64,000 nucleotides of DNA, taken from contig NC_087251.1 in the NCBI RefSeq assembly GCF_037042905.1, forward strand, positions 3,226,001 through 3,290,000. The letters are read 5' to 3'. The position numbers and the translations under genes are program-made. A model generated the notes under the pieces. It did no database searches. It saw only the letters and a program-made list of their open reading frames with translations, and had not been told where the DNA came from. This stretch comes from Lytechinus pictus. Its lineage: Eukaryota. Shown here one piece after another: positions 1 to 58,557 of the stretch (position 1 is the first letter of the stretch; every line of letters begins with the position of its first letter).

Positions 1-1474
1 TAAGTTAATTCACAAAATTTATCCTGCAAAACATATTTTCCATTTTATTTATGTGAAGCAGATGATTTTACCAAGTTGTTGCAAACAGGATAGTAGCATT
101 CAGAGGAGAAGTTGCCAATTATTGATCAACCAATTCATGACCATGAAAAACATTTCCTAATCCTCTTTGTTTGAATACATGCATGGATTATCAGTTTCAC
201 ATAAAACCATTTTCGTTTTCAATGCCAACACAAAAACACTAGCCATACAGCTTTACTAGATTAAGGAACTACTGATCCTCACTTAGAAGTAGGTCATGTG
301 AACAATTTAATATTGATTTATTTTGCTTATGAGCAGTGTGTAGTGCTCTAAATGCTCTTTCAGTTTTACAGGGTGTGGCAAACTTCTTTTTTAATCCTGA
401 GGTTCTCCATTCATAATAAATTACATGTAGTTTCAAATTAAGAAGAGATTAATTGAGGAAAAGAGATTTTTCAAGACACAAGAATAGCTTAAAAACTCTA
501 GACTAAAAGTATGTACATGTATTAAGTTTGATTCAGGTCATTGTTTTTTTGTTTAATGTGTATTCCGGGATTATCCATTCATGTAATGTTGGAAGTATTC
601 TTCCTTTTAGGGAGGGGGGGGGGGTGGAAGTAATTTGTGTAGCAGTGGGTTGCTCTAGACTCAGTTTACAATGTTTGCAAAGTTCAATGGATTTTTGTGA
701 TATTTTATTTATTTTGGTCATTGGGTGCTGAAAGAAATGCTTCTTGAATGCTTCATTTGGTTTATATTTCCAATGAACCTGTTCAAAAGAGAGTATCAGT
801 TATACATGGTTCATATCAAGTGCTGTGATCAAGCTTACCATGATGAAATCCTTCTCTGTGCATTTGCTGGAGTTGTTTAAATGTCATCTGTCAGTCATAC
901 TCAGTGTACATTATACATTGCCCTTTTGCCACAGGAGGTTTGATGATAAGGACTGAGGGGAGCGTGTCATTCATATTTAGGTCTTCAATTGGTTGCTTAT
1001 TGTTGCTAAACATAGTAACAGTTGATTTCTTGATTGCTACATGCATATGAGGAAGAAGAAAAAAAATCAAATATTTAATCACTTGAATTTAATATTTTTG
1101 GGTGTGGGGCTTGAGTTTTTAAAAAAATAATAAAATGAAAATGTCATGAAAACAAAGATATTATTTGATTACATGTATTTATTTCACATTATATGAGGCA
1201 ATTATGTGATGATGGTATATTTTTTAATTAGTGAAAACTGGGAGTACATGAAAAAAAGCAGGTTTTATGTGTCATGAATTCAGTTTATTGAAAATTTGAT
1301 GATTTCTTTTGCAATTGTCGCAAATACCTTCGCGAACACTGTACAAACAATTTTATACATAGCAATAAATGGTATGAAATAGGTTTGTATGGTATTCGTA
1401 AAGGTATTTGTGACGATAGCCAACCATATTCATTTTATTCAGTCTGTTGACAATTTGTAGGATTTTCTACAATT

Positions 1475-35399: not shown

Positions 35400-35441
35400 T
35401 CACGCTTGCTTGAATGCTTCTGGTGGAATCTTCCCTTCACT
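35400..35441 (-). CDS. NXF1: NXF1 last coding exon ([13 protein letters not shown])
   Basis: ttttag|, TGA at 35402-35400. Confidence 0.93.
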   Translation of the reverse strand, partial: SEGKIPPEAFKQA

Positions 35442-38400
35442 CTAAAATACAAACAGAAAAGAGAACAGAAATATATTTTTTTAAAGTTGATACAGAAATT
35501 ATTACAACCCATAACAATATATACATTTGTAAGTTCATGTACAAAATGTTCATATACACTGTATCTAACAATCATAATGTATGTATTAGTGACAGAATCA
35601 AAGATTGTATGGTAATTAACTAGCATCACTTTCAAAAACATGATATCAAAATGCAATCTGCTATTCATACTGTTTTTATAATTTACATTACCTTCTTGAT
35701 ATTAAATGTATAAGAATATTTGGTCATGATTTTGTTTATTGCCTAAGCAGTAATGACATTATTGATTGGCTTGTTTGTGGGGGAAACATTAGAAGTATTG
35801 ACAGCGCTAAAACTGCACATTTATTTGACTCATGTAATATGATCTTTACAACTTGGTGAATAAATCTATGTAACCCTCAAGTCCAGTCAATGATATTCCC
35901 ATAAATAGTGCAGATATGATCTTAGCTCATAGGGTGACAATGACAGTGTGAATTGGTTGTTATCTATGTAAACAATCAATGACTAACCTGTAAACTTGTG
36001 AAAACTGTCCCAGATTGTTCATAATTCCAGTTATTCTCTTCTAGACACCTGTGTGTAAAGTAATCGTAAGTAACAAGAAACATGAATAGATGATGACACA
36101 GAGATTACACTCCTAATGAAGAAAATATTCTTAACCATGGGATATAAGAGAACAACATATAATCATGTTTCCTGTGCTATTAACATTCCTCATTATCAAT
36201 TGGCTACACTCTTTCAACATGCCTTTGTTTCTGCTATAGCTATATATCATTTAGTAGGACCAAAACTTTCAAATAGCATTGTAAACAAATACAACACATT
36301 GATATTAATCAACTAGCATAAATGATGTCTTTCAGAAACAAAACCATATGTTACCAATGATAAATCTTATGTTGCACCCAGATGCATCTACCCCTATACA
36401 GCCAAGCAATGCAGAGCAAAATATAATACTAATAATCCATCCCCATCCCTTTAAGAAAACTTACTTCATAGACCAATCAGCATTCATACCAGAGACTCTC
36501 ATGAATTCAGCAAGCATCTGTTGCTGTGTTGGGCCAAGTCCTTGTGGTATTGGTGCTGGCATTGATTGAGGAACGTTGACAGGACTAGTAGATGGTGTAG
36601 GACCAGGGCTAGCAAATGAGCTCTTAAGGTTGGGAAATAAGGATTGGTACAGTGATTAGTCTTGGGAAAGGTAACAATATTGTAAAATATACTGATTTCT
36701 TGAATTACATTCATAATCAATATACAAACTTGCTAATAAAACAAGTGGAGCGCCTCTGGCAGTCTCACCTGCATCGCGCGAAATTCAATAAAGCAGCCGT
36801 GCTGGCTTTGAAAACTACTATAAATAATTATTCACAAAAAACACCATTCATATAATGATACAATACTACGTTCATTGACAATAAATGACATTTGACCTTG
36901 ATCATGCGACCTAAGACTTGTCAGTAATACTTGATTACCCCTATATCCACATTTTACAAACTATATCGATAATCTTTGAAAGTTATAACAGCAATCTAAT
37001 AATAACCTCCAAAATGGCCAAAGTTCAATGACCTTTAATGACCTTTGACTTTGGTCATGTGACCTGAAACTCAAATGGGATGTTCAGTGATACTTGATTA
37101 CTCTTATGTCTAAGTTTCATGAATCAGATCCATAAACTTTCAAAGTTATGATGGTTATTCAACAAATACCCCCAACATGGCCAAAGTTCATTGACCTTAA
37201 ATAACCTTTTACGTTATTCATGTGACCTGAAACTCGGGCAGAATGTTCAGTAATACATGATTAACCATATATCCAAGTTTCATCAACTAGGTCCATATTC
37301 TTTCTAAGTTTTGCTGTCATTTCAAAAACTTAACCTCAGGTTAAGATTTTGATGTTGATTCCCCCAACATGGTCAAAGTTCATTGACCCTAAATGACCTT
37401 TGACCTTGGTCATGTGACCTGAAACTCAGGCAGGATGTTTAGTAATACTTGATTAACCCTATGGCCAAGTTTCATGAACTGGGTCCATAAACTTTCTTAG
37501 TTATGCTGTCATTTCAAAAACTTAACCTTTGGTTAAGATTTGGTGTTGACGCCGCCACCGCCGTCAGAAAAGCGGCGCCTATCGTCTCACTCTGCTTTGC
37601 AGGTGAGACAAAAACTAAGGATAATGCAACTATGTAACTATATAATACAAATTAGAACGATATAACAAAATTATTTCTTAATAGAGGTATGATAATTTCT
37701 TTATTTTGTACTCACATTACTGCATTTATCTAATTTCAATGTACGATTGAAAATAAGGCTCATTAGTATCAAAGTAGAGATTGGCATGAAAATGATTGAC
37801 AACCATTAAAATATCATTATTCCATTCCATTCATGAATGCTGGATATTTTTAGTGTACAATACAAATTACTGCATTAGAAACAGTTGCTTTCTACACTCA
37901 CACTAGGATTTCCCCATGTAGTGATACCCAGCATGCTGTATACATGTCACATAAACATAAATCTCATTGGTTCTATCATTGAGCAATATCACGCAAACTT
38001 AATATCTTTATTTAGCCAATTCACCAAATTTGTTCGAATTAACATCACTTATGTTTGAAATTTATAATTTAAAATCAGTATATGTAATAATGTTCATTCC
38101 AGCAGACCAATGTACTAACTCTCCCATCACATTTACCTTTTGTTGGTTAGTAGCTGGTCTTAGGCAGAGTTGATCATTGATAATACATAGGCCAGTAGTA
38201 GGGTGATGTGAAGCTAAGAATACTCTACTGAATGCAATTACTACCTCGTCGTTGGACTTGCTGGTAACTAAAGACAAATTATACAAATAACATAACTTTG
38301 GAATTCATTCTGTTTTGGGATATCTTCAGTATACTTGAATACAGATATCAGCTCAAATATGAATATATCTATCGTCCAGAATGTTTACATATACCTGGGA

Positions 38401-41400
38401 AAAGAAAATGAATTCCTGTTTTCACAACTTCTGTCACGAGAAACAATAATATAGAATTAAAGATGTATCTAAAGTGATGAGATGTATTTAATGCATACAT
38501 ATTGTATTTATCATATCAGAAACCAACTAGTCATTGCATCATGCTTATTTTTCTACCAGGTGCATATCAACCGTGAGCCTACCTTTAGATACTTTGCCAA
38601 TATTGTTGAAATAAAGAGTATGAGGGACCTAATAATAATACATAAAGTTAAATCGAATGACAGAATGCATCACTGCATCACTAATGAGTTGGTTTTTTTT
38701 TTTTTGGGGGGGGGGTATAAGCAGTGTTCAATAAGGAAAAACGATGAGAAAGATATGGTCATGCATCAATTCTTACCTTCTTTGAAAGTACCACTGACTG
38801 TGAAACATAGTAGATTTCCCTGTAAATGGGAAGAAAATATATATATCTTTAAATAATATGAATTCCTCAGTCTTATATAACACACTGTGTTTTACATGAC
38901 ACCTATATAGATCCTTATTATTTGATTGGTTGTTTGATATCGATCATTCGGCCCATTTTAAAATAACATCATTACCCATGCAATTTTGGATCCAATCATC
39001 GGGCAATTATGGACCCATACGATTTTGTCCATTGCACGCTCGCACCACGACTGCAGGCACCATAAGTAAAACCACTCATGTTCGCAGCGTCAGGGTATGT
39101 ACGCGATAATCAACTCGCACTACATGAGCATATTTTGCATCAACATTCATAATTTTCATATGAAAAAAAAAGAATCTATTGTAGGTGTGATGTAAACCAA
39201 ATAATGAATGTTCTTTTCATTTGTGCCATGGACGCAATACTTCATTCGATGAAGATGAAATGATTGATCATTTCGTCTTGCACCTCATGAAGTATTCTGT
39301 CCATTGCACAAATGAAAAGAACATTCATTATTTGGATAACATTTACAAGTTATTTATACAAGTTTCATTCACATTTGTCCCTAATATATTCTAACTTCAT
39401 GGCTAAACAATTCACTCAGCTTTCAGAATATCTATATTGAAGCCTGATAAACACATGAGTTACTCTCTCATCTCCCTTCAGCATTCAACTTCTATGTTGA
39501 TGAAATCTACCAGGGTCACAAAAATAGCAGTTTAAATGCAACAACAACAAAAATCAAGCGCATGTCCCAAATACACATTTGTAATGATTGAAAATTAAGT
39601 TCTGGTTAATTTTTGGAGTTGCATTTGATTGAAACTCTTTCTGCAATAGCCCCCTGAGGAGATTAGCAAGAAAAATAGTTTATGGAATGGCACTGCTTCA
39701 AGATTGTAAAAGCATAAAAATGGTGTGCCCTGGGAAATAGATCAAGTCTACCGAAAGGAGCACATTTTTTTCAGCTGTTTTCCGAAGAATTCTACATATT
39801 TTGAGAGAGGCAAATAGAAGCTAAAAAAACGGGCCATCAAAGCTGAACTATGCTATACAACATTATAATAGAGTGCCCACCTCCCAAGATTGTGCTATTC
39901 CACAGCAATAAGTATACAGTACCTGTGCCATTGATACATCAATCCTAAGGGAATTCATATCATGTTGAGTGGCTGGTAGATCATGAAGGTAGGCTATGAT
40001 AGGTACTTTCTTCTGCTTTATCAGCTTGTTCCTTTGAGCTAAACAACAATTAACACAGAATATGAAGAATCAAACTTTCATCCCATGCTCTTAGATTAAA
40101 TATGGAAAACTAAAGGCAACCATTATCAAAATAGAATTTAAGCATATGAAAACCATATATTCATCATCAGGTAAAGAAGGTCAAACAAATTAATAATGAA
40201 TCACAAAATACCAAAGGTAAGGACACATCAATGATCCAAGGCATGTTGCACACAAGTTGTGATCAAATGCAATTTGAAGAAATCAAACTCGTATAAAGAA
40301 TGTGAACTTGTCAATGCATGCACTGAATCATCTGTAACAGATCACTAGGATATGATTTAAAGTCATCATTCCTCACTTGTTTCATTACAAATTTCATGCT
40401 TTCTTAGCAGTTGGGTAAAACAAATATATGTACACACTATGATATCACAAATTTTAATTCAAGTCTGACTTTACTTACACAGCCAGATCAGATGAGTACC
40501 CATCAATTTAAGGGATATAGATAGACAAAAGAGTAACATAGTGGAACAACCTTTCTATGAAAATTTATAGGGTGGAGAGGTCTAAGGTTATGAGACTTTC
40601 AGGCACGTTGAACAAATATGTGGGAAGCTGACTGGCCAGATCACATGGCCAACTGATTAAGGTCAGACTGTAATCTCTAGAAATGAAACAGGCACTAACC
40701 TGGGTCCTTTGTAACAAGTAGATTACGGCTTTGATGTTCTCTCAAATAGCGGCTAAGACGTGTCTTCCCTTGGCCAGGCTCCATGTTCAAAGGTATTGAT
40801 AGTGAGAAACTTGACTGTACATAGGGAAAAAATGGAAATCACATAACAGTCATCAATCTAGTAAGTTGCAATATAAGCACAATAGAACTAGTATATATTG
40901 ATATTCATATGGCAAGTTTAAAATTGAAATGAATAAACCGGAAATAATTAGATTTACTAATAAATAGGTTTCATACGAATATAGTGCATATACTGTCCAT
41001 AGCAGTATTACTTGCACTCTAAGACATGGCATTTAAACATGAACTAAAATCTGGAGATGGGCTTCTACAACCTTCTGTAATGATGATGTATGTATGAAAG
41101 TAAAATCTACAAACCTAAATTTCATTAAACCTAACTTTGTGAAAAGCATAGCAAAGAATGTTAGATTTATCTTTAGGGGTCAATCAATTATTATGCTGTC
41201 CCACCAGGCATTCATTGACCTGCTTCTGATATTTTTTGACGAAACGGGTGATGACTCAACACTTTGATGTGATGTTTACAAGCATTACATAACTGCTATC
41301 GGTTATATAACTAGAAGCAATAATGAACAGTCTAATAGTCTCAAATTCCCCATGAAGTCAGACAAAAGAGAATTTTTAACGCACAAATAATTAAAGTTGA

Positions 41401-44400
41401 TAATAATAGGCCACATGGTCTTATTTTACCTGATCATGATAGATTTCAAGTAGTGGTTGTCTGTCCCGGGAATCATATACTTTGAAGAACCTTTGAGATA
41501 CACAAACATAAAGAATAGCCTAGATAATACAATATACTTCATCAAAACAAATTCATAGCAATAAGAAATATATGCTGTTCTTGTAAAGCACATACATAAC
41601 ACATTACGGGTTAATATATTTTTGCAATTCCTTAGAACTTTTGGATGATATAACTCTCACTTCAGCTTGGGTAACCTTAGATATAAGAAGGCTCCAAATG
41701 TTTTAATGACTCTTACTACACTCTAAAATCACTAAAACACTAGAATTTATATATTAAAACCTGAATAAAAAACAGGAATAAAACAAGAATACTTAATTAC
41801 AGAAAATAGTTAATATTTTGCATTTTAGAATAAAATATTGAATACCTTTCCAAGAATGGAACCAAGATTGCTTTGACTTTGTCCCCTGCAAAGAAGTTTG
41901 GTTGCATAGTGGGTAATGGAGCAGTGTCTTCCAGGTCAAAGTTGATAGGAGGGGGTAGTGTGCTTCCATCCTGTTTACAAACAAAGAATAGGAATGGTTT
42001 GAAATCATTCTCCTTTACACTGTATACTTCAAAACCTATACACTGAAATAGCACCCCCCCCCCCTTTACTACATGAACTGAATAAATGCATATGTAAATA
42101 ATTAAATAAATAATTAAATAAATAAATAAATGAATAAATAAATAAGTAAACAAATAAATAAATATATAAATAAATGAAAATGAATAAATTGACAAATAAA
42201 CAGAAATAAACAATTCACTAATCAATAAACAAAGTAACAACGAATGCTACTAAATGACCAACTAACAGAATTAATCTCATTAGATTTCATTCAATGGTGT
42301 GTACAAACTTTAAGTTTGGAGTATTAATACATGTTCTCATTATTCAAGAAAGTTTCATAAGATATGAAGCTAAACTCCATGAGTTGACCAGAAACAGAAA
42401 AAAATACTGTTGGGTCTATTGTATTTACATAAGTCTCCATATCAAAATTTATTTAAATACCATTTACCTTTGACCATGAAATCAACATATAAGAGGTTCA
42501 CCCTCTTCTCATGAAGTAAAAATGACATTGATAACAATCTACTCACCAAGATCTCTACCTTGGGAAATCTTGATCGAACAGCGCTGAAAAAAAAGAAAAA
42601 AATTAGGATCAGCTTCTGCAATAGCAACTAGATAGTATACTAAAGTACCCTTTGCAAATTCGAGTAATTTTTTATTAGAATTTGAACATTACCATATAAC
42701 ACACACTCTTGAGCAGATTTAATAAAGTTGCGATTGGGATGGAAACGGGTGATTTCAAGTTCAGTGTTGGTGGCGACGTTCACAATTCAGATTGCCTTCC
42801 CTAGCTCCATTAACTAATGTGAGTTTACCAAGATGATCCAAATCACACTGATAGCTCAACAATCACTAAGAAGAGTCCTAGAACCAGCTTCAATTGAAGC
42901 TTTGTGTTGTGTTTATATAAAAATTTGACCCAACAACGAACTTGAAATCACTCAATAACTGATTTACTTGATATTTACCCAGTCTGCTAAAACACAAAAC
43001 TTTATGCCTAGTGATTGATTTGAATGAGATAAAAGTATGTTACGATACATTTTGTACCATGTAAGACTGATATAAAGAAAGCAATATGATCAGTATTTCT
43101 ATTATTGTGAAAGAGAGACAGAAGAAACAAGAAACCTCATGAAAGTTGCAGAATATTATCAAACAGGTTGTAACAAGTAAAGATTCTGAATGATTCTCCA
43201 CAAACAATTCCATTCCTCAAATATTTAAGAAAATCACAGGACTACTGCAGCTCATATGAAAAGTACACTCTATATGAACTTGAAAGCAAAGCAGCAAAGT
43301 GATGTTGACTGTAGGTGGTATGTCCAGTGATCAAAAGGGCTCAATGATGGCAATAAAGAAACTTACCTCCATACTCACTGAATGGTTGTAGATAACACAA
43401 ACTCAGATCTAAATGTTTATGTTAAAATTTAGTTTCCCTTTTTTTCTACCAGGTTATTAAACTTCATATTGTTGACACTTAGAATTCCCAGAGCAGAAAA
43501 ATATATGAGGGACTTGCTAAATGGAGTGCCATGTATTCAAGGCCAGCTTGAGCATGAATTCATATATTAACGAAAAAATTGGCGCAAATTCTCGGACTGT
43601 CCCAGACGCTTTGCTTCTGGAGAAAGTATTTCCAATTTATCTTTCCAGAGAGTCTATGAATTGAACAAATTTGTACAAACCCTGATTTATACTTATTTTC
43701 TTTAACATTAATTTTATATTATATACCAACAAACAGAGATGAATGAAATGGAAAGGACTGGGTTACAAAAGCAGACATAACATAAGAGCAAATAGGTATG
43801 AAGTGAGCACATCAAATACCAGTGAAATGAAAAATCAAGGATGAAAATAGTGTCAAATTTTCATGACCTTTTCCAGTTGATACAAAGCATACCGAGTACA
43901 ACAATGCCAAACATGCCCTATCCAAAGCTTAGACTTGAATGGATATGATGTGAAGTGCCCATTTTGGGCTATTTGCTCTCATAATTTCTTTTTTTTTCTT
44001 CAGAGCAATGGGTTTGGAAACCTTATACTGTAGATATTTCTCATACTTCAGGTACAAAGATCAAGATGATGTTTAATTCATCTGTGTAGTCGTGCGTGTT
44101 TGAGCTACTTCTTCAGTGAGGAGCAGAGGTGTAACGATGGCAAGCCCCCGTTTGAGCATCTGTCTTAGGTTGCCCTCTTACAATGAGGATCTTACCCGTC
44201 ATGGACGCTCTAAACAGTCGGGACCCGCAGTGACTATTGTCACATGATGAGGTGGTTCCTGGATCTTCATCTGTTGGTTCTCTTTAAGTTGTGCCTTTGA
44301 TGCATTCCAAGAATCTTGAAGATACCAGTAGAGTGACTTCTGTTGTAATGATAATAACTTCACACTCATACTTGCATCAGGTTGATATATCAGGAAAACT

Positions 44401-47400
44401 TGTGCCAACATCTTCTCAAGACATGGAGAAATGCATCCATTGCATAGATGAATCACCAAATTTGTAAGGTAATAACTGAAAGCAGCTTCTTTTCATCTTT
44501 ACATTCCTTCAACTTGTTTTTGCTGATTTTCATCTGTATCTCAACAGAAGACTTACAGAATCATTATGAATATGAGCAAAGTTTGGCAATGTATACTAAA
44601 TAGCAAATATACTCCTGGTTTTCTATTTATTTCATTGGGAAGATTATCATAGCCTGGTATTTGAAAGAGTTCACTCCATTCTAAAACAGATTTTACAAAG
44701 GAGTTGGAAGGAAGAAATGATAACATAAATAGGATAAAGAAAGAAGAAAAAACACAGCACTACATATACCACAGGATGAAATAGTGCTAGATGATATGCA
44801 ATTTCCAAATCAAAATCCTTTGAAGATCATTGAGCAAATAGTTTAATGGTCTCTTTATGTTTGTATATGACATGAAAATTATATTTATCATGAGGGGAAA
44901 AAAATGAAAACCAATTAGATAAATAAAGCCCTGTTTTCATTCTCTGATTTTCACAGATACCCTACCTCTCAGAAATGGTAATTCTTCAAAGGGAAGATGA
45001 AAAAAAAGAAGATATTTTCATCAAGTGACAGAACATTCAATGGAAAGAGAAGATACAATGTAGGTAGGTAATGTCAGCTGGAATCAATTATCTATTCACC
45101 AAAAGAGAAAAAGGAAAACAAAATGACCATAGACTAGCAAGTAGTCAGTAGGGAGCTTTACTACACTTAGAGCAGATAGGCACTAAAACACACTGTACGT
45201 GCAAGGGATACATTTTGTCAAAGCAAACAATGTATACACTGTAAATTCACCAAGACATGCCAGTATCTTATGTGAAAGAGAAGAGAACATTAGAATACAT
45301 TGAGGATTAAACAACTTTGATTGGCTCAAATGAATGGCATGGTGCAAGGTACAAAGGACTCGAAACCAACAACATTCCTATTTCTCTTAGGATGAAAACC
45401 AAGGGCACTGCCATATCAAGCAAACCCTATTGGTAGCATCTCAGGACCAGATGACATCTTGTTGCTTGGTAACAAGATGCTATCCTCCTGGAACCAACCT
45501 CCAGCTTGGAACCCTCTGGAATCATTCAGCCATACCTGATATATGTTGATTGTTCTCTGAAGTTATCACATAGAGGGTTACCATCGAGAGTCAACTCCTT
45601 TAGCTTGAGTCCTTTCAGATTGTCTAGCTCTCCTTCAGATCTCAACTATTATACACATACAAATTACAAACATATACAAAAAAATATGGTTTGATTGTAT
45701 TCCTTTCTGGCAATTTCTCATTCGTGTATTTGATTGTACATGTCTAGTTACAACACTTGATACTTTTGTACAACATTGCACCCCCCCCCCCTCTCAAATT
45801 TTCCTGCAGTGCTCTGATTTCTATTCATATGATCAAAACATAAGAGTTTCCATGATCAAGAATAGGATTTGAAAATGATCAAAAAACCAAGAAATTTGAT
45901 TTTGATTTGATTTTATAGCATTTACTCCATTCATCATAAAAAACAGAACAAAACATGATACATTCACCTTTACAAAAACTACACAATTACGTAATAACTC
46001 TTTTTAACATTCACTCCAATGGAGTATATGTATAAATGATATATGAAAATATAAAAATGTACTTACATTGTTACGTGCCAGGCTGAGTGTTGTGATATTT
46101 GGCATCTTTAGCGGTAGATCAGACATGCTCTTTAGATTGTATAGTTTGTTAGCATCAAGTTGAAGCATTGTCATCTAGAAAATAAATTTAAAAGATAACT
46201 TAGTCATTTTAGTCCAAACTGCAGTATAATGGTATCTAAATATAAATACTCAATTTAATGCTTTTTTTGAAAGGGCAGAATAGTTAAGTCAAGCAAAAAA
46301 AAGATACCTATTATAGGAATGTATTGTATTTTATACATAACAGATAAGAGCTAATGAAATGTGAAAAAGTATTCTGCCAAGAACTGTCAAAAGAAGAAAC
46401 TCTGTGGAATGAGTGTCTTAGTGGGAAAATGTGGCACTGTTTTATTTGGAAATATATATATTTCTATATTTTAGAAATTGGGGGTTATGGGACTCCAATT
46501 CCTTTATCATCAAGTAGAACGAGGAGAATAAATCGAAAATCAATTTTGAAAAGAATCACTTGCTTCCTTTTGTAAGTGGACAGAAGTATTATCATTAGTT
46601 ATAAATCTATTACAAAATACCACACAACAGTAATGATACTGCTTCCTTGACCTACATGAGAAAAGATTCTGCCAAAAAAAATTGGTAAATATGTTTTCAA
46701 AAAAGATAAACATCTTACTAGGCCTGGGACTTTCGGGTATTTTTGTTTTCGGGTACCCGTGGCAATTTTCGGGCGGGTACCCGAAATTCATGTCGCATGA
46801 AATATGACTGGTGGAAAAATCCCACAGGTGACGTCATCCAGCCACTGCGCCGCAAGCAAACTTATGAATGAAAATATAGTAAGCATGCGCAGTGCAAGCC
46901 TCCCGTGCCCCACGCAGTATTCCATCAAAACAAGTCTGCAATACTCTGTCACCTCGTACCAAAATCGACCTAGAATTCCACTTTCCTTTATTTGATATTA
47001 ATTATGAAAGGTATTCTCAGAGGATCTGTTTTCTTACCGATATCACACAGGTAAGCAAATTTTGATTACTTCTTGCTTTCCCGTCAAAATCTTACGAAGT
47101 AGCGTCGATATTACATCGTGTTCGTGAGTTTGTAGAATCTATCACTACATGCACAAAGTCAATTGATTTCCGGGTAGTTTCGGAGCGCCGAATGCGCCAG
47201 CAAATCACGATCGGGTTACCATAAGGTATATCGCTAATCAGAACCGCAATGCATCACGGGATCGAAAGGGGGGCCGTTAGCTAGCTCTGCACGTGCGCAG
47301 AGCTAGCTAACGGCCCCGTTTTCGATCCCATGATGCATTGCGATTCTGATTAGCGATAAACCTTATTTTCGGTTTATGATGAACTGAAAATGGTAACACG

Positions 47401-50400
47401 AACGTGGTTGGCTGGCACTTCGTATGCTAAAGCTGCAATTAAGAAACATGGCGACGATCGAACGATCTCAGTCACATCATCACTTGAAAAACTTGTATAC
47501 TTTTGTGGGCAATGAGTTACAATCATGTCTTACACTATGCACTACGCAAATACGTTATTGGTAAGCAATTTTCGGGTATCGGGTATTGATTTTTCTACCC
47601 GGGTACCAAAGGCTTCCGGGCGGGACCCGGGTTTTAGTCCCAGCCCTACATCTTACAACTATTTCAAGAACACAAATGAAGAACAGTAAGAGGAAATTTT
47701 TTTTTTTTTTAATTACCTCTGGAATGTTTTCAGTAATTATTTTAAGGATTGCAGCAAAGTGGGCTGGTCTTTCTACAATGAGGAACAGCTTTCCTTTCAA
47801 ATCTGTTTAAAAAAAAAATAATGCAGTATATCAATTATCTTTTTACAACATTCAGATTAACTAGAAGCAGAGAATTCAATGTCAAATAAATTTACTTGAA
47901 AAAAAAACCCTCCACAAACATCCAAATTTGGTGAAAGAGGGAGCTCTATACAGCTCTGCTACGTCTCATTGACTTGAGCATTTTTCTTTTACCTCATGCA
48001 AAATCTCATACCATTGCACTCATGTCTTTTCGCTATTTGTATACCATCTGGACCCAGGAACATAACAGATAACAATCAACTGCTCAACATATTATAAATC
48101 AACTGCAAATTACAACTGTATCTCTTCATATTACATAGTCCTGGATGGGGATTAACATTACTACTCACCAGCATCATTTGTCAGATTCCCAAGGTCTAGT
48201 GATTTGGCAGAAGGATCATAACGTCTGCTCATAACTTGTTTGAGTAGATCAAGATCTTTATCATTAAACACTGATTTCATGGGTGGTCTGCATGGACGAG
48301 TCTGAATGATGATCTGTGGGGAATTACACAGAATGTTACACTTTGTGTGATTGTCTTTTTTTTTCATAAAAGAAATCAAGTAAACAATTTAAGTGATTAC
48401 AAGATGAATTTCTTAGAACTGATGATGAATATTGATCATCTATTTACTTCACTCCTTCTTTTCACTTCATAGCAACAAGATCATGTTGATTTTACAGCTC
48501 AAAGAAAGGGAGACCAGACTTCAATTCTGATCTATTCATGGCATATCACTTATCAAATATAACCCTTTTGAAGAACTTTTAACAAAGAGCTAAACCTGAT
48601 TTAAGATCATGCCTTAGAGCCATCATGGACATGTTATTTAAGCACACAATCTCACTGCTGACTTGTCAATAGTGGAAAGCCCTAAGCTGAATCTGGTTAA
48701 TGTGATGTGTTTTATCCTGCAAGCAATTCACCCTGTACTCTTTATAAAACACCCCAAGAGCTTGTTAAAATTGAACTCAAGAATCATCTTTCCAAAATAA
48801 TATAATTAATTCAGGGAAATCTGCTTAAGACACTGCTTCTACTGGGCACAAATGAAACTTCTTCTCTAAAAATAGGTTTCAGAATTACACTCTCTATAGT
48901 CCAGACCCATTCACGACTTCTCTGAGAAAGATGGTTTTGTGACATTTTACACAGACTAAATACTTTGTGTTGCATTTTTTACATATATACACACCAACAG
49001 GTGGGGGTTAATATTTTTTGTATTACCACTGTTTATTCTTTTTCTTTAACTCTGACTGATTCTGTTATTTCAAAATTACATATTTTTAGAATCAAATGAC
49101 AATTTAGAGGGTCAAATTTGCAACTTTTTGAAAGTCACTTGTATTTTATACAGTTAGAGGGTAAATTTGCCCTTTGTCCCACTGTCTTTTAAAGAGTTTT
49201 AGGAGCTTCCAATCCATGTTCCCAAGAAAGAAAGCATACTGCATAATAGGTGATTTCAAGGTTGGTATTGACATTGGAAGCACAATTCAGATTGCCTGCT
49301 TGCAATACCTACAAGTAGTCTGAGCTTACAAATAATTATTATTAATGACTCAAAACCTAGTGAGATTGGTCCCAGGACCAACTTCTTTTAAACTTTGGTA
49401 AAAATGTAAAAATCAAGCTCACGCAACACCAAAATGTCAACAACAAGCTTGAAATCACCAAATCTTCACAGACATTTGAAGCAGTACTTATTACATAAAC
49501 ATTCTATTCTCTAGATTACCTTGTATCCACTTGGTGTTGTTATTCTGGTGCTAACATCTTTCAAAGCTTCACCAGTAGCTAAATCGTCCACATAAAAGAT
49601 TGCATTCTGATTATCATAAGTAAACTAAAATAGGAGTAAAAATACAGAAAATAATGAAAGAATGAGATTGTTTTCAAATCAATTTAACATATAATAATAA
49701 TAATAATACAGGGTGTTTATATATTGTGCACATATTCAGCTTGCTCAAGGCGCTCCTTTATGTTGACAGAATACACAATATGTTAATACCTCTTATAATA
49801 ACATGCTTCAGCATTATGAGATAAATTAGGTACTAAACTAATGTTAAGTAAATAAGGCTGTCAAATTTTTTTCATCTGCAATTTTATGAAACATCATCAT
49901 AAAAGTGAGTAGATTGCCATGATTGAAAGACAACGAGTCATAACAAGTCATGACAAAGTAATCATAGGGGAAAATACTTAATTCAATAAGTTAAAACTTT
50001 AATTTCAAAAACAAAAATGAAAGAAACCATACCTATCATTTGTATAGACCATTTACCAGTATAGCAAAAAAGAAAGTAAGAAAAAGCATTTGGATACAGC
50101 ATATAACGGCCTGAGGTATAGATAAACATGAAAATCCTTTATTCTTGACTGTTGATTAGCATTACCTCTTGTGGTATAAAAGGTTCTTTACAAGCACCTT
50201 GGATAGTCTTGATGAGCCATTCCTTTTCACTCTTCTTCCCATATGGTATCTGGTAAGAAAATGAAACAATTAAGCCTGAGTCGAATCGATTTTAAAATCG
50301 GTGTTCGATCGATGTCATCGAACGCCGGTGCAGATTTTGCAAAATCGGTGGATAGAAAAAAAATAAAAATACGTCGGCCGGCCGATTCATTTGGTTAACA

Positions 50401-53400
50401 CAATCAAACATCAAAATAAACAGTAATATCCAACTTGACTACTACTTACTTAATTTATATTGCCCCCAAAATGAAACCGATTGTGTGTAAATATGATGCC
50501 TATTCCCCATTAATTTGAAGTTTTTTTCGGTCATAGTTCGAGTCTTACTCGTCTACCCGGCTCGTCTGCTCGTGCTGAGATAAATTTAGGCACGATGAAT
50601 TTATGAATGGAAGTCGCCATTGATCGTGCTTTAATCAAATCAGAAAATGGCCGGAAAATTGACGCGATCAACGTAAAATAAATCTTGCTTTCATGAACAA
50701 TATTAATATGACAATAGAACATGATTTAATCGTAATATTTAACAATAGGCCTAATTAGCATATGATAATCATTCATATGAATTTAGAGCTTGATGTGAAA
50801 CGTTTGTATTTCGTTTCAATTTTCAATGGCGGACATCACATGACGATCGACTTGAGCGAGTGCACTTGTCTAAAAAATAATTATCACGTCAGGATCGATT
50901 CTCGAACATTTTCAACATGTAGAAACTCTTTTGAAGATTGTAATATCACCATATAATAACATTTTACATGACAAAACAGAGAAAAATTGCGTTTGATATT
51001 TTTTCCCATCAATTTGAAGCTAGTTTGTGCCAATTTTTGGGCTCTGATTTCATGAACGGAAAATATGTCAGACGTCATCGACCGCGCATGCGCATTGTGC
51101 TTCTTTTCTCGGAGCTCGGAGACGTCCAGAGATGGAATAAAAATAAAAATAATGCCAGTATAATACTATTAATTCTTCTAATGAACATAACATATACTTT
51201 GCTGACATCGTCAATATTTTTAGTATGGCCATAAAAATCTTATCGTAATTATTTAACATCCAATAATAATTTATATGAATTTAGAGCTCGATCCGAGACA
51301 TTCGTATTTATTTCGATCACAAGCTCTTGTGTCTAAAATAAAAAATGGATTATCATTATCAGGAATAATTTTCGAACATCGTCATAACTCATATTCCACA
51401 ATCTTTCCTCACAATCGTTATGTCAGCATTGAATACCAATTCAAATGATCATCCAGAGAAAATTACATATTTATTCCCATCTATTTATTTGGAGCTATTT
51501 TTTTTTCCAACTACTCCGCCAACTACACAATCTCAGGCAAGTTACAGGGCTCTCCCCGCTGTTTGCACTTGTTAGATGGCGCTGGCAAGCGTGCATGTCG
51601 TTTCGGGAGAGTGAGTGTACGGGGCGCGCCGCGTACGGGGCTAGCTGCGGACGGGGCTGGTGTGTGCGAGGCTGGACTGCGAATGCTAGCTGACCGAAAA
51701 TCATTCGGATCGACTCTGCGTGATTCATGTCTTTAATATTGTTTCATTTTAAACTTATATTTTATCATCTGCAAATAACATTGTTGAGGATATTTTGGGA
51801 AGAATCCTGCATTGCTCCCCTGCATTGCTCCCCGGCCTTTTTCGTGTTTTGTGATCATGGAAAATATGAACGAACTTTGCTCTGTCATCTGCTTTTGCAA
51901 CGCTCACCCGGCCATCCAGAGCAGACCGTCAGGGCGTCAGTGCATGTAGTGCATGCATAGTGCATCGACGGCCGGCCGGCCGGAGCAAAAAAATTTCCAC
52001 GCCTTAAACATTCGATGCATCGATGTTCGATCGAATTAAAGCTGTCGAACACCGGTTTTCAAAATAATCGATATGACTCAGGCTTAGAAACAATGATTCT
52101 AAATATAATTTTGATACTTAAATAATAAAATGCATATAACTATAAGATTCCAAGCCATTGGGTAACATGTTGTGATTAGCACTGACCTACCTACATAAAT
52201 GTATTGATCATAAAAAAGCAACAAAAAAAGAACCCAAAAAATTGTATTAAAGAGCACCACTATTTGTCTAAAAACAAAGAAATAAATGAGAAAGGAAACT
52301 AGAATTTTTCTGACAAAGTTGTTAGAAATATTGCTGATTATCTAGGATTCTTTCAAGTCTTGGCCTTGAACATCATTTATCCATGACCATGTTCTTTTAT
52401 TGACTGGCTGCATCTCCTAATTATCTTTCCTTTTGTGTTTTTCAACCAGTAATTTATTCATGTCAATTTTTGTTCCACTTCATTTCATTTTCATCTTATA
52501 CAAAGAGTTATTATTCATATAGAAAAAAAATTACAATATATAGACCCCTAGACATGAATTTTCAAAGAATGCGTTATTTCCATATTCAGAAACATCAATT
52601 TAATATGGGAGCCCCTCTAAAAACAGCCAGATTATCTCATTATGTCCAACAGAGTACAAAAAGCATACTTACAGTAATTTTACACCATGTTTCGTCATCC
52701 CTTCCACTATGCCTAGAACCATCCTTAAATGGTAAACCTAGTCTTGACATAGAGCTTTGTGATGAACCTCCTCTTCTATCATTGTTCTGTGATCTCCTCT
52801 GGTTTGCTCCAGATTTACGGTTTCCATATGGATTACTGAAGGAGGTAAATATCACATTTAATATTCAGATAAATAACTCACTATCACAATATACATTTAT
52901 TTTCTTCCAACGATTCAGTTTGGAAGGATAACATTCTCTGAATATTTCTGCTACTGATGTACAAAAATTATCAAGAAGGTAAAGGAAGACACAAACAAAC
53001 AAATATTTTAATTAGTTACCAACTTTCTAAAGATGCTGAAACTAAGATTTAATTTATTATTGTCACTCTTTAACGTCATTGATTTTTCTCTTCAAAAATT
53101 AAACACAGTAATTAAGAGACAGAGGTATATTTTAGTTTCAAAATATTTAAAATAAATAGAACTTACAATCTCGAATTTGCTTTTGGATTGTCTCCATCAT
53201 CCATCGATACATCATCATCTTCTAATCTTGACCTTGGATGAACTTGGTCTGAATCCCTATTATTCATTCCTCCTCCAGCTCCATCCCCTCGATGACCTCC
53301 TCCTCCTCCTCCTCCTCTCCTTTTATCTCTTCTACCACCTCCACGACCTCCTCTCCATTTTCCTCCACCACCACTTCCTCCACCTCCACTGTTACCACTT

Positions 53401-56400
53401 GTTTGTCCACCACCTCTACCCCTTCCCCTTCCTCTATAACCACCATCTCTGTCATTATATCTGTCATAGTCATTGCGTCCTTGTCCTCTGAAGTTATCAT
53501 TTCGGTCATATCTGTCACTCTGATCCCAGTCATTTCTGTTTCCTCCTCCTCGTCCCCCGCCTCTTCCTCCTCCTCCTCCTCCTCCTCCTCCTCTTCCTCC
53601 ACCTCCCCCTCCTCTTCCTCCACCTCGCCAGTGGCCACTTGGTGTTTCTCGAGTGCGATCATCATGTCCTGCAAGTATTCATTGAAAACAAGTGATAAAA
53701 AGGTCAGAGCTAATTCATGATCATATTCCAAACAATGTTTCAATTCACCAAGTCTTTGGAATTTTTTTTCCGGAGAAAAGAAACACCCCAAAACATGAAC
53801 TAGTTCAAAATCAATTACTCTACAGCTTATTCTTGGATTATCCCTTGGCACAAAATACATACCGTAAGAATGAAAAATTATGGTTAGTCTCTGCCATCTC
53901 AACATAATCTACCATAAAAAATGATTAAAAACTCCTCCAAACAGACTAATTTCTGCTGTCTAAGTTAACCCGCTGCATAGTTCGGAAATAAGACACAGAT
54001 TCATCACTTAATTTTAATGACAAAATTTTGCTTTTTGGAGGGTGTTTTGGAGTTTGGGCTTTTCTGTGCATTGGACTGTCATGTGAGTAGATTTTCTTGT
54101 GTTCGGTGTATGTCGTATATTTGACCATGTGACTGCAATCCACTCTTGAGTAAACATATCAAAAAGTCTTCAGCAGAGTGGGAAATCCATGCAGCACTAA
54201 ATCCACCCCCTGTACCAACCACACATTCCTAGCCAGGAGGCTTCTTGAGAGTAAAAATCATTTACTAACGTATGTTTACTCTCAATGAAGCCAGGGATTC
54301 CTTCTTATTCATCTGCGTGTACTGCCAAAAAACCTGAAACTTTCGCCCCCGAGATTTCTACTTTCCTAGTTCTAAAACATCTAGCCATAAATCATGTACA
54401 TGGGATAAAACTTTATTTCCGACATTTCTACGCTCTCGGTTTTATTTTTAAACAAGAATTCATTTTAAAAATGAGAAAAATATTGTGAAAAGACGGAAGA
54501 GACTTGCCCGATGTTTACGCCGCCATCTTGTTTCCTATTGTACTTCCCCAACGTTGAATTCTTGTTTAAAAATAAAACCGAGAGCGTAGAAATGTCGGAA
54601 ATGAAGTTTTATCCCATGTAAGCTACGCACTTTGTTTACAAACGATAAAAACTATGCCAATTTTAATATTCTAACAAATCATCTTTCACAAATTTGTGTT
54701 AAATATTGTAAAGATTCATAACCAAAAAGAAAATATCACAAAACTCACTAATACGAAAATCCCGCTGTGTTTTCCGAACACCTCTTGATTTCGCCGCCCG
54801 ACATAGAAGGGGTCCTTAAGCTACGCACTCAATTTATCATGCAAAGAAAAATAATTTCCTGTACCTAAACTTCTAAATAATGTTCATATTCTTATAGAAA
54901 AATATGAAATCAAAGTGAATATAACTCAAAAATTCCAAACAGTTGCTGGTTTTCTCTGTATTTAGCGATTTATTGCAGCCTCTGTAGAAAAAAAGTGAAA
55001 GGAATCGTCCGTCACACTGCAGAGTGCGCATTTTGCAATTGAAATTGCATGCGCATTGGAGTGGTGCGTAGCTTTAGGACCCCCTACCATACATGATTTA
55101 TGGCTAGATGTTTTAGAAGGAAAGTAGAAATCTCAGGGGCGAAAGTTTCAGGTTTTTTGGCGGTACATGCAGATGAATAGGAAGGAATCCCTGGCTTCAT
55201 TGAGAGTAAGCATACGTTAGTAAATGATTTTTACTCTCAAGAAGCCTCCTGGCTACACATTCCCTAGCCGGTTAATAGTTTCGGTTGATAGTTTTAAGAA
55301 AAGTTTAAGCAAAATTCAAATGTCTACTTTCATCCGGGGGGGGGGGGGGGGGGGGCACATCATCATGAATTCAAAATCAAATTCATCACTAGCCACACAT
55401 GCCTGCAGCAATCATATCCCAATTGAGGAGTTTGTCCGCAGTAACAGGAAGAAGCAGAAGAAGCCCTCCATTTTACATACCGTAAGAGCACTAGTATTCA
55501 ACCCGTTTGGAGAGTTTCCTCAAATATATAGACAAGGCTCGACATTAGCGGTGGCCCGGTGGCCCAGGGCCACCAAAAATTCACCTCGGGCAACCATTAT
55601 TGATAAAATGTTAAGTTTTGGTGGCCCGAATCGGGCAACCAATAATTTTCAAAGTAGCGCAATTTTTCTCCCAATTTTGCACGCATTTATCAACTTTCTA
55701 CAGCTCAAGTTGCAAGCCAGTTCGTCATGCGCCCTTTTTGTTGATCTACACACAAATACACACACACAAAGTTTGCATATTAGGCCTACAGCTACAGCAT
55801 AGAGTAGCTATTATCCAGCCAGACGCGCCGGCCGGCTGGCATGAGCTTTGCATGAAGCCACTGCATACAGCTGTGCTCTAGATCTAGCTCAGCCTATTCA
55901 GACTCGGGGAGCTGCGATAAAAAATGTTGCTGCTGAGAAATCTTCCACAGAACTTTGAAAATCTAAGTCAAAGTCACATTTTACACCAATGAAATGCAAT
56001 TCTACAGTCTATATTACGAAAATCTGGTGTACCCTGATTATTTGCAAGTATTAAGAAGAGGAATTATGACCTCTCTTTTGACTAAAAAAGACCGATTTCC
56101 ACATGAATTAATACACATAAAAACACATAGGCAAGTACATCACAGTCCCACGTGTGCATTTGTATGTATGTTGATACTTGGTTTCTTTCGAAGCTGTGTA
56201 TTTTCTAGCCAAAAACAAACAGACAGTTTCTTTCTTTCTTGTTTATAAATGACTTCTTAAACCACTCTTGAGAAAGTAAATACTTTGGGAAGGCATTTCA
56301 TTGATATGAAATGTGATTTTTTTTCCAACATTTTGGCAAACATAGGGAAGGACTTTTCTCACACTTTTTTCCAGATATAATTTTTGCCGTTTTCTTATTT

Positions 56401-58557
56401 TTTTTCCTTTGATTTTTTTTGACAGTGGTTAAACCATTTATACCCCTTCCCAGTGAATATGCCTGATTAAAAAATATGTTTCTACTGAAAATAAAATAAT
56501 ACAAACTAAAGGATATACAAATAAAAATGTGCCATTCCCAAAAAGTGAAAATTATTTGCTTGGCTTTTAATTATATTCCAGTCAGAATAGACTGTTGCCA
56601 CAGCTGTTAAAAATATATGTAATGGCTTCTTAATTTTCTCCTTTTCCCCATTTTTTTATTAACTTTGTTTTATTAATTTTTCTTTCATTTTCTTTTCTTT
56701 TTTCTCTCTAATTTTTTTCTTTTCTTTTTTTCCCTGTTCTTTGTTTTTTTCTTTCTATGATTTTCTTTCTTTTTATTTTATTTCACTAATTTCTTTTATT
56801 TTTGTTTTCTTTTTGTAATATACTTTTTGAAAATTATTTTCGTTTGTTTCCCCCTTTTATTCATTGTTTTAATTTTGCAGCATATTTTTCTGTGATTTTC
56901 TCCTTCTATAATATGCTGCAAAAGAGAAAACAGAAATAAACTGGATTTGGGGCATGCATAATCTAGGTTTTAGGATTCAAAGAGGAAGGAAGGAAAAACC
57001 ATTGTTTTGTACATCTATCTGAATTTGCTATGCACTATTTATTTACTTTACCATTATCTCTATACAGAGATTTTTAAAAAAGTCCACACAACCTGCGAAC
57101 AATACAATTCATTTATTCTCTTTCAATCATTTCATTTTTACAACGATAGAAACATTTATCAATTAGCAAAGTAAAATAACAGCAAACAAGGTTTACATAC
57201 AAGATGTATAAAGTAAAAGTAACATAGTGGTATTGGCTGCAGAATTAATATTTCAGAAGTTTGTTTTATTCATTTTTAATGTTTTTCTTTATATTTTTCG
57301 GGCCACCAAACTTTAATATCGGGCCACCAAAAAAAATTATTTGATGGTTTTGGTGGCCCAAACGGGCCACCACCAAAAAAAGTTAATGTGGAGCCTTGAT
57401 ATAGAAATTTGGAATTTACCTTAATTTCAGACCTGTCTTACTTCCAAGAGCAAATGCTGGTTATTCTTTTTGCGTTATTTTTTTCTTCAACCCGTCGACT
57501 GTGTGCGCGGGCGATCGAATTATACGGCGATGGTTTTTGGCACTAGTATTCAATCCGTCAGCACTAGTATTCAACCTAGCGATTATAAGATGGCCCTGTC
57601 TCTCAATCTGCCCTTGTCCCATCTGCCTATGGACTAGACCATTTGAGATGAGACCAAGAAACGGAATTAGTCAAAGCCAGAGACTTGCATAGATCTATCT
57701 AGTTTAGCAATTTAAACCATTTTGAAATTCGCTTATCATCACTAGGTTGAATACTAGTGCAATTCAGTGCAAAAGTGCTAAATATTTGGGGGAATTTGTC
57801 AAAATCTTTGAATTATGCCGGGTTGAATACTACTAACTAGTGCCCTTACGGTACTAATTGAAAATATTGTGGAATTGTGATTACACATACACTGATACAG
57901 CACACACTGACACCGGTAATCGTATCTGAGATTTTCGGCACACTTACTCAGAAGAATATAAGGAACTTTATCAACAGAAAATGTTTGTGAAATAAAAAGA
58001 AATTCATGAATTCATGTTAAATTTTAACTTTAAAAAATAGTTAGGCGAGCAGAGGCCACCCCCCCCCCCCCCCCTTTCATAATCAATGGCAATGCCAATG
58101 GTCTCTCACATTCAAAAGCGGTAGGATGGGGGGGTCGGGTGTCCGGACACTTTATCTTTTTGACGCCTTCTTTTTTGTCTTTGTATTACACTAAAAATAT
58201 AAATTCAATACTTGTAATCATCTTCTGTTTTGTTCTTTATAATATTTCCTAACGTTTTGTACTAAAAATTGATGAAACTTCGCTTGTATTTTTTTCCAAA
58301 TGACTTTCTAAAATTGATCGTCCGGACACACAACCTGTCCGGACAAACAACAACTGGGTACCGGAACCGTACGGTACAAAAACTACAAACTTTTCAACAT
58401 TCACACGCAGTATGATTGAGAAAACCGGCAAATATTTTCTTACACTTATCATGCAAAACAGAAAGAACATCTTTTTATATTTACCGTAGTAATTTCTACC
58501 ACCTCCTTTAGTAGATTTTGTCACTGTGAAATCTCCATGACGCTGAAAACTCGACAT
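35400..58557 (-). CDS. NXF1: Nuclear RNA export factor 1 (TAP), complete 19-exon CDS, 754 aa
   Basis: Exons (5' to 3'): 58557-58485, 53668-53167, 52835-52673, 50249-50166, 49624-49520, 48313-48169, 47802-47717, 46174-46067, 45645-45536, 42583-42547, 41970-41846, 41490-41430, 40814-40700, 40038-39923, 38819-38777, 38267-38137, 36622-36465, 36048-35988, 35441-35400. Total 2265 nt, in frame, all GT-AG. Domain order: RGG N-terminus, R-F-N-PY NLS, pseudo-RRM (WCKITIPYG), LRR ([17 protein letters not shown]), NTF2-like ([29 protein letters not shown]), TAP-C/UBA ([27 protein letters not shown]). Confidence 0.96.
35988..36048 (-). CDS. NXF1: NXF1 exon 18 ([20 protein letters not shown])
   Basis: acacag| ... 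|gttagt, 61 nt. Confidence 0.94.
36465..36622 (-). CDS. NXF1: NXF1 exon 17 ([14 protein letters not shown]...[21 protein letters not shown])
   Basis: cttaag| ... |gtaagt, 158 nt. Confidence 0.92.
36741..37614. mobile_element. Non-autonomous element with subterminal inverted repeats, internal tandem repeats and a terminal hairpin (DINE-1/Helentron-like layout)
   Basis: gtctcacctgca (36762) / tgcaggtgagac (37598); terminal hairpin gtctcac..gtgagac; 3-4 internal TGACCT-rich repeats. Confidence 0.7.
38137..38267 (-). CDS. NXF1: NXF1 exon 16 ([29 protein letters not shown])
   Basis: ctttag| ... |gtaaat, 131 nt. Confidence 0.93.
38777..38819 (-). CDS. NXF1: NXF1 exon 15 ([14 protein letters not shown])
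   Basis: ttacag| ... |gtaaga, 43 nt. Confidence 0.93.
38860..39337. repeat. Interspersed repeat with internal inverted repeat
   Basis: aaataatgaatgttcttttcatttgtgc / gcacaaatgaaaagaacattcattattt; CpG-richer body. Confidence 0.5.
39923..40038 (-). CDS. NXF1: NXF1 exon 14 ([10 protein letters not shown]...[15 protein letters not shown])
   Basis: gtttag| ... |gtactg, 116 nt. Confidence 0.93.
40700..40814 (-). CDS. NXF1: NXF1 exon 13 (SSFSLSIP...[11 protein letters not shown])
   Basis: gtacag| ... |gttagt, 115 nt. Confidence 0.92.
41430..41490 (-). CDS. NXF1: NXF1 exon 12 ([20 protein letters not shown])
   Basis: tcaaag| ... |gtaaaa, 61 nt. Confidence 0.93.
41846..41970 (-). CDS. NXF1: NXF1 exon 11 ([14 protein letters not shown]...LVPFLER)
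   Basis: aaacag| ... |gtattc, 125 nt. Confidence 0.94.
42097..42240. repeat. Degenerate (TAAA)n microsatellite
   Basis: aataaataaataaatg... Confidence 0.85.
42547..42583 (-). CDS. NXF1: NXF1 exon 10, the conserved 37-nt cassette exon ([13 protein letters not shown])
   Basis: tttttcag| ... |gtgagt, exactly 37 nt. Confidence 0.95.
42747..42953. mobile_element. About 205-bp MITE; related copy at 49249-49460
   Basis: TIR gtgatttcaag / cttgaaatcac and a shared cacaattcagattgcc block in both copies. Confidence 0.7.
44131..44243 (-). promoter_or_regulatory. Constitutive transport element (CTE)-like RNA stem-loop in the NXF1 cassette intron
   Basis: Sense RNA GAGCGUC-C-AUGACGGGUAAGA-UCCUC-AUUGUAA-GAGGG-CAACCUAAGACA-GAUGCUC. 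Both CTE signature motifs are present in the right order and orientation, closed by complementary stems, and lie in the intron orthologous to vertebrate NXF1 intron 10. Confidence 0.88.
45536..45645 (-). CDS. NXF1: NXF1 exon 9, the conserved 110-nt cassette exon ([36 protein letters not shown])
   Basis: taatag| ... AG|gtatgg, exactly 110 nt. Confidence 0.96.
46067..46174 (-). CDS. NXF1: NXF1 exon 8 ([20 protein letters not shown]...TLSLARNN)
   Basis: ttctag| ... |gtaagt, 108 nt. Confidence 0.94.
46719..47648. mobile_element. hAT-like non-autonomous element (930 bp)
   Basis: TIR taggcctgggact / agtcccagcccta, perfect 8-bp TSD CATCTTAC, subterminal cgggta repeats. Confidence 0.9.
47717..47802 (-). 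CDS. NXF1: NXF1 exon 7 ([28 protein letters not shown])
   Basis: aaacag| ... |gtaatt, 86 nt. Confidence 0.94.
48169..48313 (-). CDS. NXF1: NXF1 exon 6 ([11 protein letters not shown]...[17 protein letters not shown])
   Basis: ccacag| ... |gtgagt, 145 nt. Confidence 0.94.
49520..49624 (-). CDS. NXF1: NXF1 exon 5 ([14 protein letters not shown]...PSGYK)
   Basis: ttttag| ... |gtaatc, 105 nt. Confidence 0.94.
50166..50249 (-). CDS. NXF1: NXF1 exon 4 ([28 protein letters not shown])
   Basis: taccag| ... |gtaatg, 84 nt. Confidence 0.94.
50271..52086. mobile_element. hAT-like non-autonomous element (1816 bp)
   Basis: TIR taagcctgagtc / gactcaggctta, perfect 8-bp TSD GAAACAAT. Confidence 0.92.
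52673..52835 (-). CDS. NXF1: NXF1 exon 3 (NPYGNRK...WCKIT)
   Basis: cttcag| ... |gtaagt, 163 nt. Confidence 0.93.
53167..53668 (-). CDS. NXF1: NXF1 exon 2 (HDD, long RGG/Gly tract, [11 protein letters not shown])
   Basis: ttgcag| ... |gtaagt, 502 nt open in frame. Confidence 0.92.
54230..55255. mobile_element. Palindromic (foldback) element with a nested insertion in its right arm
   Basis: tagccaggaggcttcttgagag / ctctcaagaagcctcctggcta, TSD CACATTCC. Arms of about 230 bp. Insert at about 54621-55088 with TIR ggggtccttaagctacgcac / gtgcgtagctttaggacccc. Confidence 0.85.
55480..57851. mobile_element. Tc1/mariner (pogo/Tigger-like) MITE containing a nested element
   Basis: ta|ccgtaagagcactagtattcaacccg ... 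cgggttgaatacta...ctagtgcccttacgg|ta. Confidence 0.8.
55533..57398. mobile_element. TIR element with 7-bp TSD (possibly P superfamily)
   Basis: TIR caaggctcgacatta / taatgtggagccttg, TSD ATATAGA, subterminal ggtggccc repeats. Confidence 0.82.
58485..58557 (-). CDS. NXF1: NXF1 exon 1 ([24 protein letters not shown])
   Basis: Start context aacatcATG; donor G|gtaaat; phase 1 matches the next exon to give G-HDD (cf. EHDD of vertebrate NXF1). Confidence 0.75.

Follow-up and report, generated by a model that had tools for sequence, protein, structure and literature searches.

Is the RNA switch in the NXF1 gene restricted to vertebrates? In human, mouse, zebrafish and coelacanth, a constitutive transport element (CTE) lies in the retained intron 10 of NXF1 (PMC4338338; PMC5170612). 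We address the question with a 64,000-nucleotide (nt) stretch of DNA from the sea urchin Lytechinus pictus (NCBI RefSeq assembly GCF_037042905.1, contig NC_087251.1, positions 3,226,001 to 3,290,000), hereafter the window, in whose numbering all positions are given and whose minus strand carries the NXF1 gene of this echinoderm. One intron of this gene is retained selectively in part of the transcripts of some samples and holds a stretch of CTE sequence that is predicted to fold into a single-loop hairpin. We propose that NXF1 likely controls its own RNA in this animal through a switch of which all earlier reports come from vertebrates. The exon-intron cassette, its retention, the short isoform and the mechanism are already known; it is the invertebrate range that is new.

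What does the gene look like? Splicing the 19 exons by their coordinates gives a protein of 754 amino acids (aa) that is identical to P0001, an NXF1-like protein of Lytechinus pictus. The parts on which the argument turns are the following.

35400..58557, minus strand: coding region of NXF1 in full, 19 exons, 754 aa, with the RGG region, RRM, LRR, NTF2-like domain and UBA domain
58557-58485, minus strand: exon 1, with the start ATG at 58557
45536..45645, minus strand: 110-nt exon (exon 9 of 19), covering positions 92-127 of the 142-position NXF1 LRR model
42584..45535, minus strand: 2952-nt phase-2 intron, GT..AG, orthologue of human NXF1 intron 10
42547..42583, minus strand: 37-nt exon (exon 10), in which the LRR coding sequence ends
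45526..45528, minus strand: in-frame TGA, the third codon past the exon-intron codon, with nine exon junctions downstream

A first-pass annotation, made by a model from the letters of the window, had described a 110-nt exon and a 37-nt exon around a 2952-nt intron (42584-45535), and these sizes and coordinates were reproduced on the minus strand. The same is true of its read-through into the TGA at 45528-45526, which gives a protein ending in QSTYIRYG, and of its 461-aa open reading frame, which we obtain from ATG 58557; the frame is 480 aa long if translation begins at the in-frame ATG 58614, which lies 19 codons earlier and is the start of one NCBI model (P0034), from which three other urchin orthologues differ. 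A domain search agrees that the predicted short product would comprise the RGG region, the RRM and most of the LRR, lacking both the NTF2-like domain and the UBA domain. The donor AG|GTATGG, which had been called non-consensus, proved to be ordinary: it agrees with the consensus at seven of nine positions and ranks ninth among the 18 donors of the gene (leave-one-out matrix), and this median strength rules out a weak donor as a special trait of the retained intron. Decoy donors are not enriched in the intron (one site in 2952 nt), and the acceptor of the 37-nt exon (42583) is the most pyrimidine-rich of the gene, at 16 of 17 positions. A start at ATG 53905, which would give 451 aa, was likewise rejected by comparison with P0001, as were exons at 38628 and at 37614.

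Is this the intron that vertebrates retain? The human short NXF1 is 356 aa long, 18 of them intron-coded (PMC5170612), so human intron 10 comes after residue 338. In an alignment to PDB 4wyk, numbered via R128, human I338 pairs with urchin I458, which is the last residue coded wholly by the exon. Judged by this alignment, the urchin intron corresponds in position to intron 10 of human NXF1, as the first-pass annotation had supposed. That annotation also took the 110/37-nt flanking exon sizes for a general feature of animal nxf1 genes, which to our knowledge they are.

Is the intron retained? We assessed retention on positions 40600-47900 with four of the 21 listed runs: X1 consists of contigs whose species label is shared with the raw runs, X5 consists of contigs from a related organism, and X19 and X21 are raw-read runs, depleted of ribosomal RNA and from one study, about 6% of each of which was read. 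X2-X4, X15-X18, X20 and the small-share rows other than X5 lay outside the comparison. The spliced joint 45536/42583 was seen in all four runs. In X1, depth in the retained intron was 15.4-21.4 over ten bins (43040 to 45479), with contigs that reach into both flanking exons, compared with 50.7-59.2 for contigs of the shared exons and 62.5 for the spliced joint; in X5, the same bins had a depth of 17-48 and the joint 18.9. The four bins wholly inside introns 10-12 of the urchin gene had a depth of 0 in both sets, the bin in intron 8 had 1.3 (X1) and 5.2 (X5), and the coverage of intron 7 was swamped by a dispersed repeat. The corresponding retained fractions, which are approximate since they derive from contig depth, lie between roughly one fifth and one third for X1 and at about 60% for X5. 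In both sets the coverage extends over nearly all of the 2952-nt intron. Retention is selective for this intron and varies between samples. The retention that had been predicted was therefore present in X1 and X5, where intron depth lies far above that of the introns 10-12 bins, and absent from X19 and X21, which gave the spliced form only. Intronic polyadenylation as the main event is disfavoured, as the X1 depth has no 3' drop and one contig enters exon 10.

Two minor observations belong here. A lone strong cryptic donor lies within the retained intron at 43366 (minus strand), with a possible acceptor about 45 nt upstream, and is used by none of the joints listed in the four runs. At position 40802, all four runs have A and the window has G (plus strand), a synonymous difference in exon 13 that reflects either an allele or the assembly.

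Does the intron carry the element as well? The following features were found within it.

44143..44225, minus strand: single-loop CTE hairpin, by sequence match and predicted fold
44202-44160, minus strand: CTE core
44203-44198 and 44166-44161, minus strand: CTE loop strands
44197-44194 with 44170-44167, minus strand: CTE four-pair helix
44195, minus strand: 5'-splice-site-like GT beside the CTE loop, within the core

A comparison by eye with the retroviral CTE sequence printed in bioRxiv 10.1101/2020.03.20.000869 shows that 13 nt of the 5' strand and 12 nt of the 3' strand of the urchin element are identical to the first half of the retroviral CTE, and that the hairpin between these strands is of unrelated sequence (18 nt in urchin, 17 nt in the retroviral element); L001-L003, three viral loci, were also aligned with it. 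The predicted fold has a GC-richer hairpin and a 6x6 internal loop with AAGACA on the 3' strand (z score -2.3); the predicted probability is 0.79 for the core helix and 0.84 for an unpaired loop. For comparison, the inner loop of CTEs is described as 6+6 (PMC4338338), and AAGACA is conserved among them (PMC4330393). The element is in sense orientation, 1333 nt from the 5' splice site and 1576 nt from the 3' splice site. On the protein side, R128/K129 of the basic RRM patch of human NXF1 correspond to K/K in urchin NXF1.

The urchin and vertebrate elements have a good deal in common: the position of the intron, its retention, the early stop, a single 6x6 loop, a splice-site-like motif adjoining that loop, and a location nearer the 5' splice site, a likeness drawn from published description rather than from direct alignment of the sequences. 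They differ in the invertebrate host and in the intron-coded tail (3 aa in urchin, 18 aa in human), and export has been demonstrated for human and zebrafish NXF1, whereas export and the short protein are predictions for the urchin. The CTE of type-D retroviruses (Mason-Pfizer monkey virus and simian retrovirus 1, MPMV/SRV-1) shares with the urchin element both core strands (the 13 and 12 nt of one half) and the same loop, but it has two loops where the urchin element has one, and the latter has different flanking stems and a cellular, intronic location. A second CTE loop was not found, and the window holds one copy only, without the two symmetric loops of the viral form. Likewise, no joint listed in the four runs uses the splice-site-like GT at 44195, and an Rfam search of 35000-55000 gave no match reaching a family's gathering score; its top score, 27.9 bits for DLG2-AS1_2, where the cut-off is 70, was dismissed as chance. 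Stable predicted hairpins also lie right after the stop codon (45390..45500, minus strand; z score -3.2), and the strongest of 58 windows spread along the intron, at -3.7, falls there. These hairpins could mask the donor region or affect nonsense-mediated decay (NMD).

Could the hairpin have arisen by chance, or be the inert remains of an inserted retroelement, in an intron retained for some unrelated reason? The frequency of such matches depends on the pattern used. A looser 19-nt CTE pattern matched L001-L003 in a viral collection, all three of the retroviral-CTE type, and in a metagenome scan it gave 38 loci in 16 sequence clusters, 12 of which look like chance, having 0-4 of seven extra flanking matches and a core-helix probability of at most 0.35. 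A stricter 23-nt pattern matched once in the window and in none of 100 shuffles, and once across 596 gigabases (Gb) of prokaryotic genomes. Furthermore, the retained intron contains no open reading frame of at least 100 codons, and the element lies, in sense orientation, in the one orthologous retained intron of two distant animals. We consider coincidence or a dead relic to be highly improbable.

The second of these animals came from the metagenome scan. L039, alone among the 38 loci, has NXF exons, eight of them, the last of which measures 110 nt as in the urchin; a stop follows one codon into the next intron, and the CTE lies 908 nt into it. The L039 protein branches outside the jawed vertebrates with support of 100/99 (32 rows) or 99/98 (17 rows, 15 having been dropped). 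On its long branch it also falls outside the bivalve-arthropod group that was sampled, and the approximately unbiased test rejects a grouping with teleosts (p-AU 0.016) or mammals (p-AU 0.001). As far as sequence can tell, then, a second animal outside the jawed vertebrates has a CTE in the same NXF1 intron. The start of that intron (L039 3450-3560) has the donor-like motif CAGGTAA three times within about 80 nt, one of these being the true donor; no clear counterpart of the 45390-45500 hairpins was seen in L039. Another locus, L018, has a single-loop CTE with a strong fold (550-636, minus strand) in an AT-rich contig of 2.4 kilobases in which no NXF exons were found, possibly from the NXF1 intron of another animal. 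The CTEs of the window, L039 and L018 have the loop in common and differ in their stems, with 10 of 21 predicted pairs changed on both sides. One further metagenome cluster (15 loci) is retrovirus-like, with tandem halves in L011 and L022 and a YMDD stretch in L037; none of these halves reached a core-helix probability of 0.6 when folded alone, a test that is insensitive for single halves, since at least 0.6 was attained in five of 34 distinct matches. Rfam searches of L039, L018 and L009, a CTE-like match from the same scan, found nothing.

What might the retained intron and its CTE do? They correspond, in the sea urchin, to NXF1 intron 10 of vertebrates, and we propose that they likely serve export and feedback, a reading that we hold to be probable, with some reserve. 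First, NXF1:NXT1 would bind the CTE loop in the retained intron. Second, the bound NXF1:NXT1 would export the intron-retaining NXF1 RNA with its premature stop. Since this RNA has nine exon junctions downstream of the stop, it is a predicted NMD substrate, and most of the exported RNA may pass to NMD, or else give short protein only in some cells. Because each retained transcript would be lost to full-length NXF1, its retention would exert negative feedback on NXF1 output. The three-residue tail presumably has no function of its own.

Alternatively, the main purpose could be a stable short NXF1 (461 aa, with the RGG region, the RRM and a truncated LRR) that partners full-length NXF1, with the CTE delivering its mRNA. 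Such a protein has a mammalian precedent, reported for rodent neurons (PMC5170612), and the high retained fraction in X5 would suit it, as would the stop right past the junction, which is kept in urchin, L039 and zebrafish. However, the last 15 of the 142 LRR model positions are cut off, nine junctions lie downstream of the stop, and the clusters of P0001, P0003 and P0004, five proteins in all, contain no short isoform, which as a test is weak. Nor is the tail conserved: it comprises 18 residues in human, "a few" in zebrafish (PMC4338338), three in urchin and one in L039, and because its length varies in this way it is unlikely to matter in itself. The expectation of a tail of about three residues, shorter than the mammalian one, was thus correct, and this shortness is not peculiar to the urchin. 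On balance, we think it unlikely that a stable short protein is the main purpose.

A nuclear detained intron offers another explanation, in which the retained RNA is a reservoir to be spliced later, and CTE-bound NXF1 slows splicing or holds the RNA instead of exporting it. In its favour, X1 and X5, both of them contig sets, have high retention and the raw-read runs X19 and X21 have none, and the absence of reads from almost all other intron bins of X19 and X21 would fit material poor in nuclei. Against this, human and zebrafish tests have shown RNA export by the same element (PMC4338338), and we regard detention as quite improbable.

Several points weigh against an exporting, self-limiting switch and in part favour detention. 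X19 and X21 gave 15 and 13 reads across the spliced joint, and their depth was 0 in all nine bins of 43040-45235. Our view that X1 and X5 are RNA is a guess, made because spliced joints are present and neighbouring introns are empty, and contig depth is in any case a poor guide to expression. Steady-state retention as high as this fits nuclear detention equally well and is awkward with efficient NMD. Finally, the covariation rests on the three sequences of the window, L039 and L018, and it is weak in a 10-row set that includes retroviral halves, where the paired fraction was attained in 28 of 500 shuffles.

How old, then, is the element? We consider it fairly probable that the CTE is an ancient autoregulatory RNA switch of animals. 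It would have been kept almost letter for letter in the retained intron of NXF1 from the echinoderm-vertebrate common ancestor, if not from earlier; flies and worms would have lost it, and type-D retroviruses would at a later time have captured and duplicated it. In the urchin, it would be switched by stage or tissue, over a range from no detectable retention to about 60%. It may date from early animals, because L039 branches outside both the jawed vertebrates and the sampled bivalve-arthropod group. A published survey found CTEs in mammals and two fishes only, and none in birds, reptiles, fly or worm, and the accessible text of that paper contains no mention of urchins, amphioxus or lamprey (PMC4338338). 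In Drosophila, sbr/nxf1 likewise has an intron-retaining transcript, with a tissue bias (PMC8151460), but no CTE homology was found there (PMC4338338). Our literature search, which covered few subscription papers and so cannot prove absence from print, found no report of an invertebrate NXF1 CTE. With a CTE in an echinoderm, the origin of the element moves from bony vertebrates to the ancestor of the deuterostomes; it would therefore be older than the mammalian retroviruses that use it, and the case that PMC4338338 makes for a cellular origin gains strength. In L. pictus, whose embryos lend themselves to experiments, the strong differences in retention between samples make the role of the CTE (feedback, storage or a short protein) testable.

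Finally, the gene contains a number of repeats. Two related elements of about 210 nt, with terminal inverted repeats of 22-36 nt, lie at 42745-42960 in the retained intron and at 49245-49465 in intron 5. Loose read ends, seen on both strands, suggest a dispersed repeat, similar to miniature inverted-repeat transposable elements (MITE-like), and one X1 contig jumps 159 nt between the arms of such an element. Nested long inverted repeats in intron 1 (54230-55280), with 66-nt arms that are 98% complementary, are probably a transposon, and further palindromic elements lie at 47221-47366 and 39190-39342.

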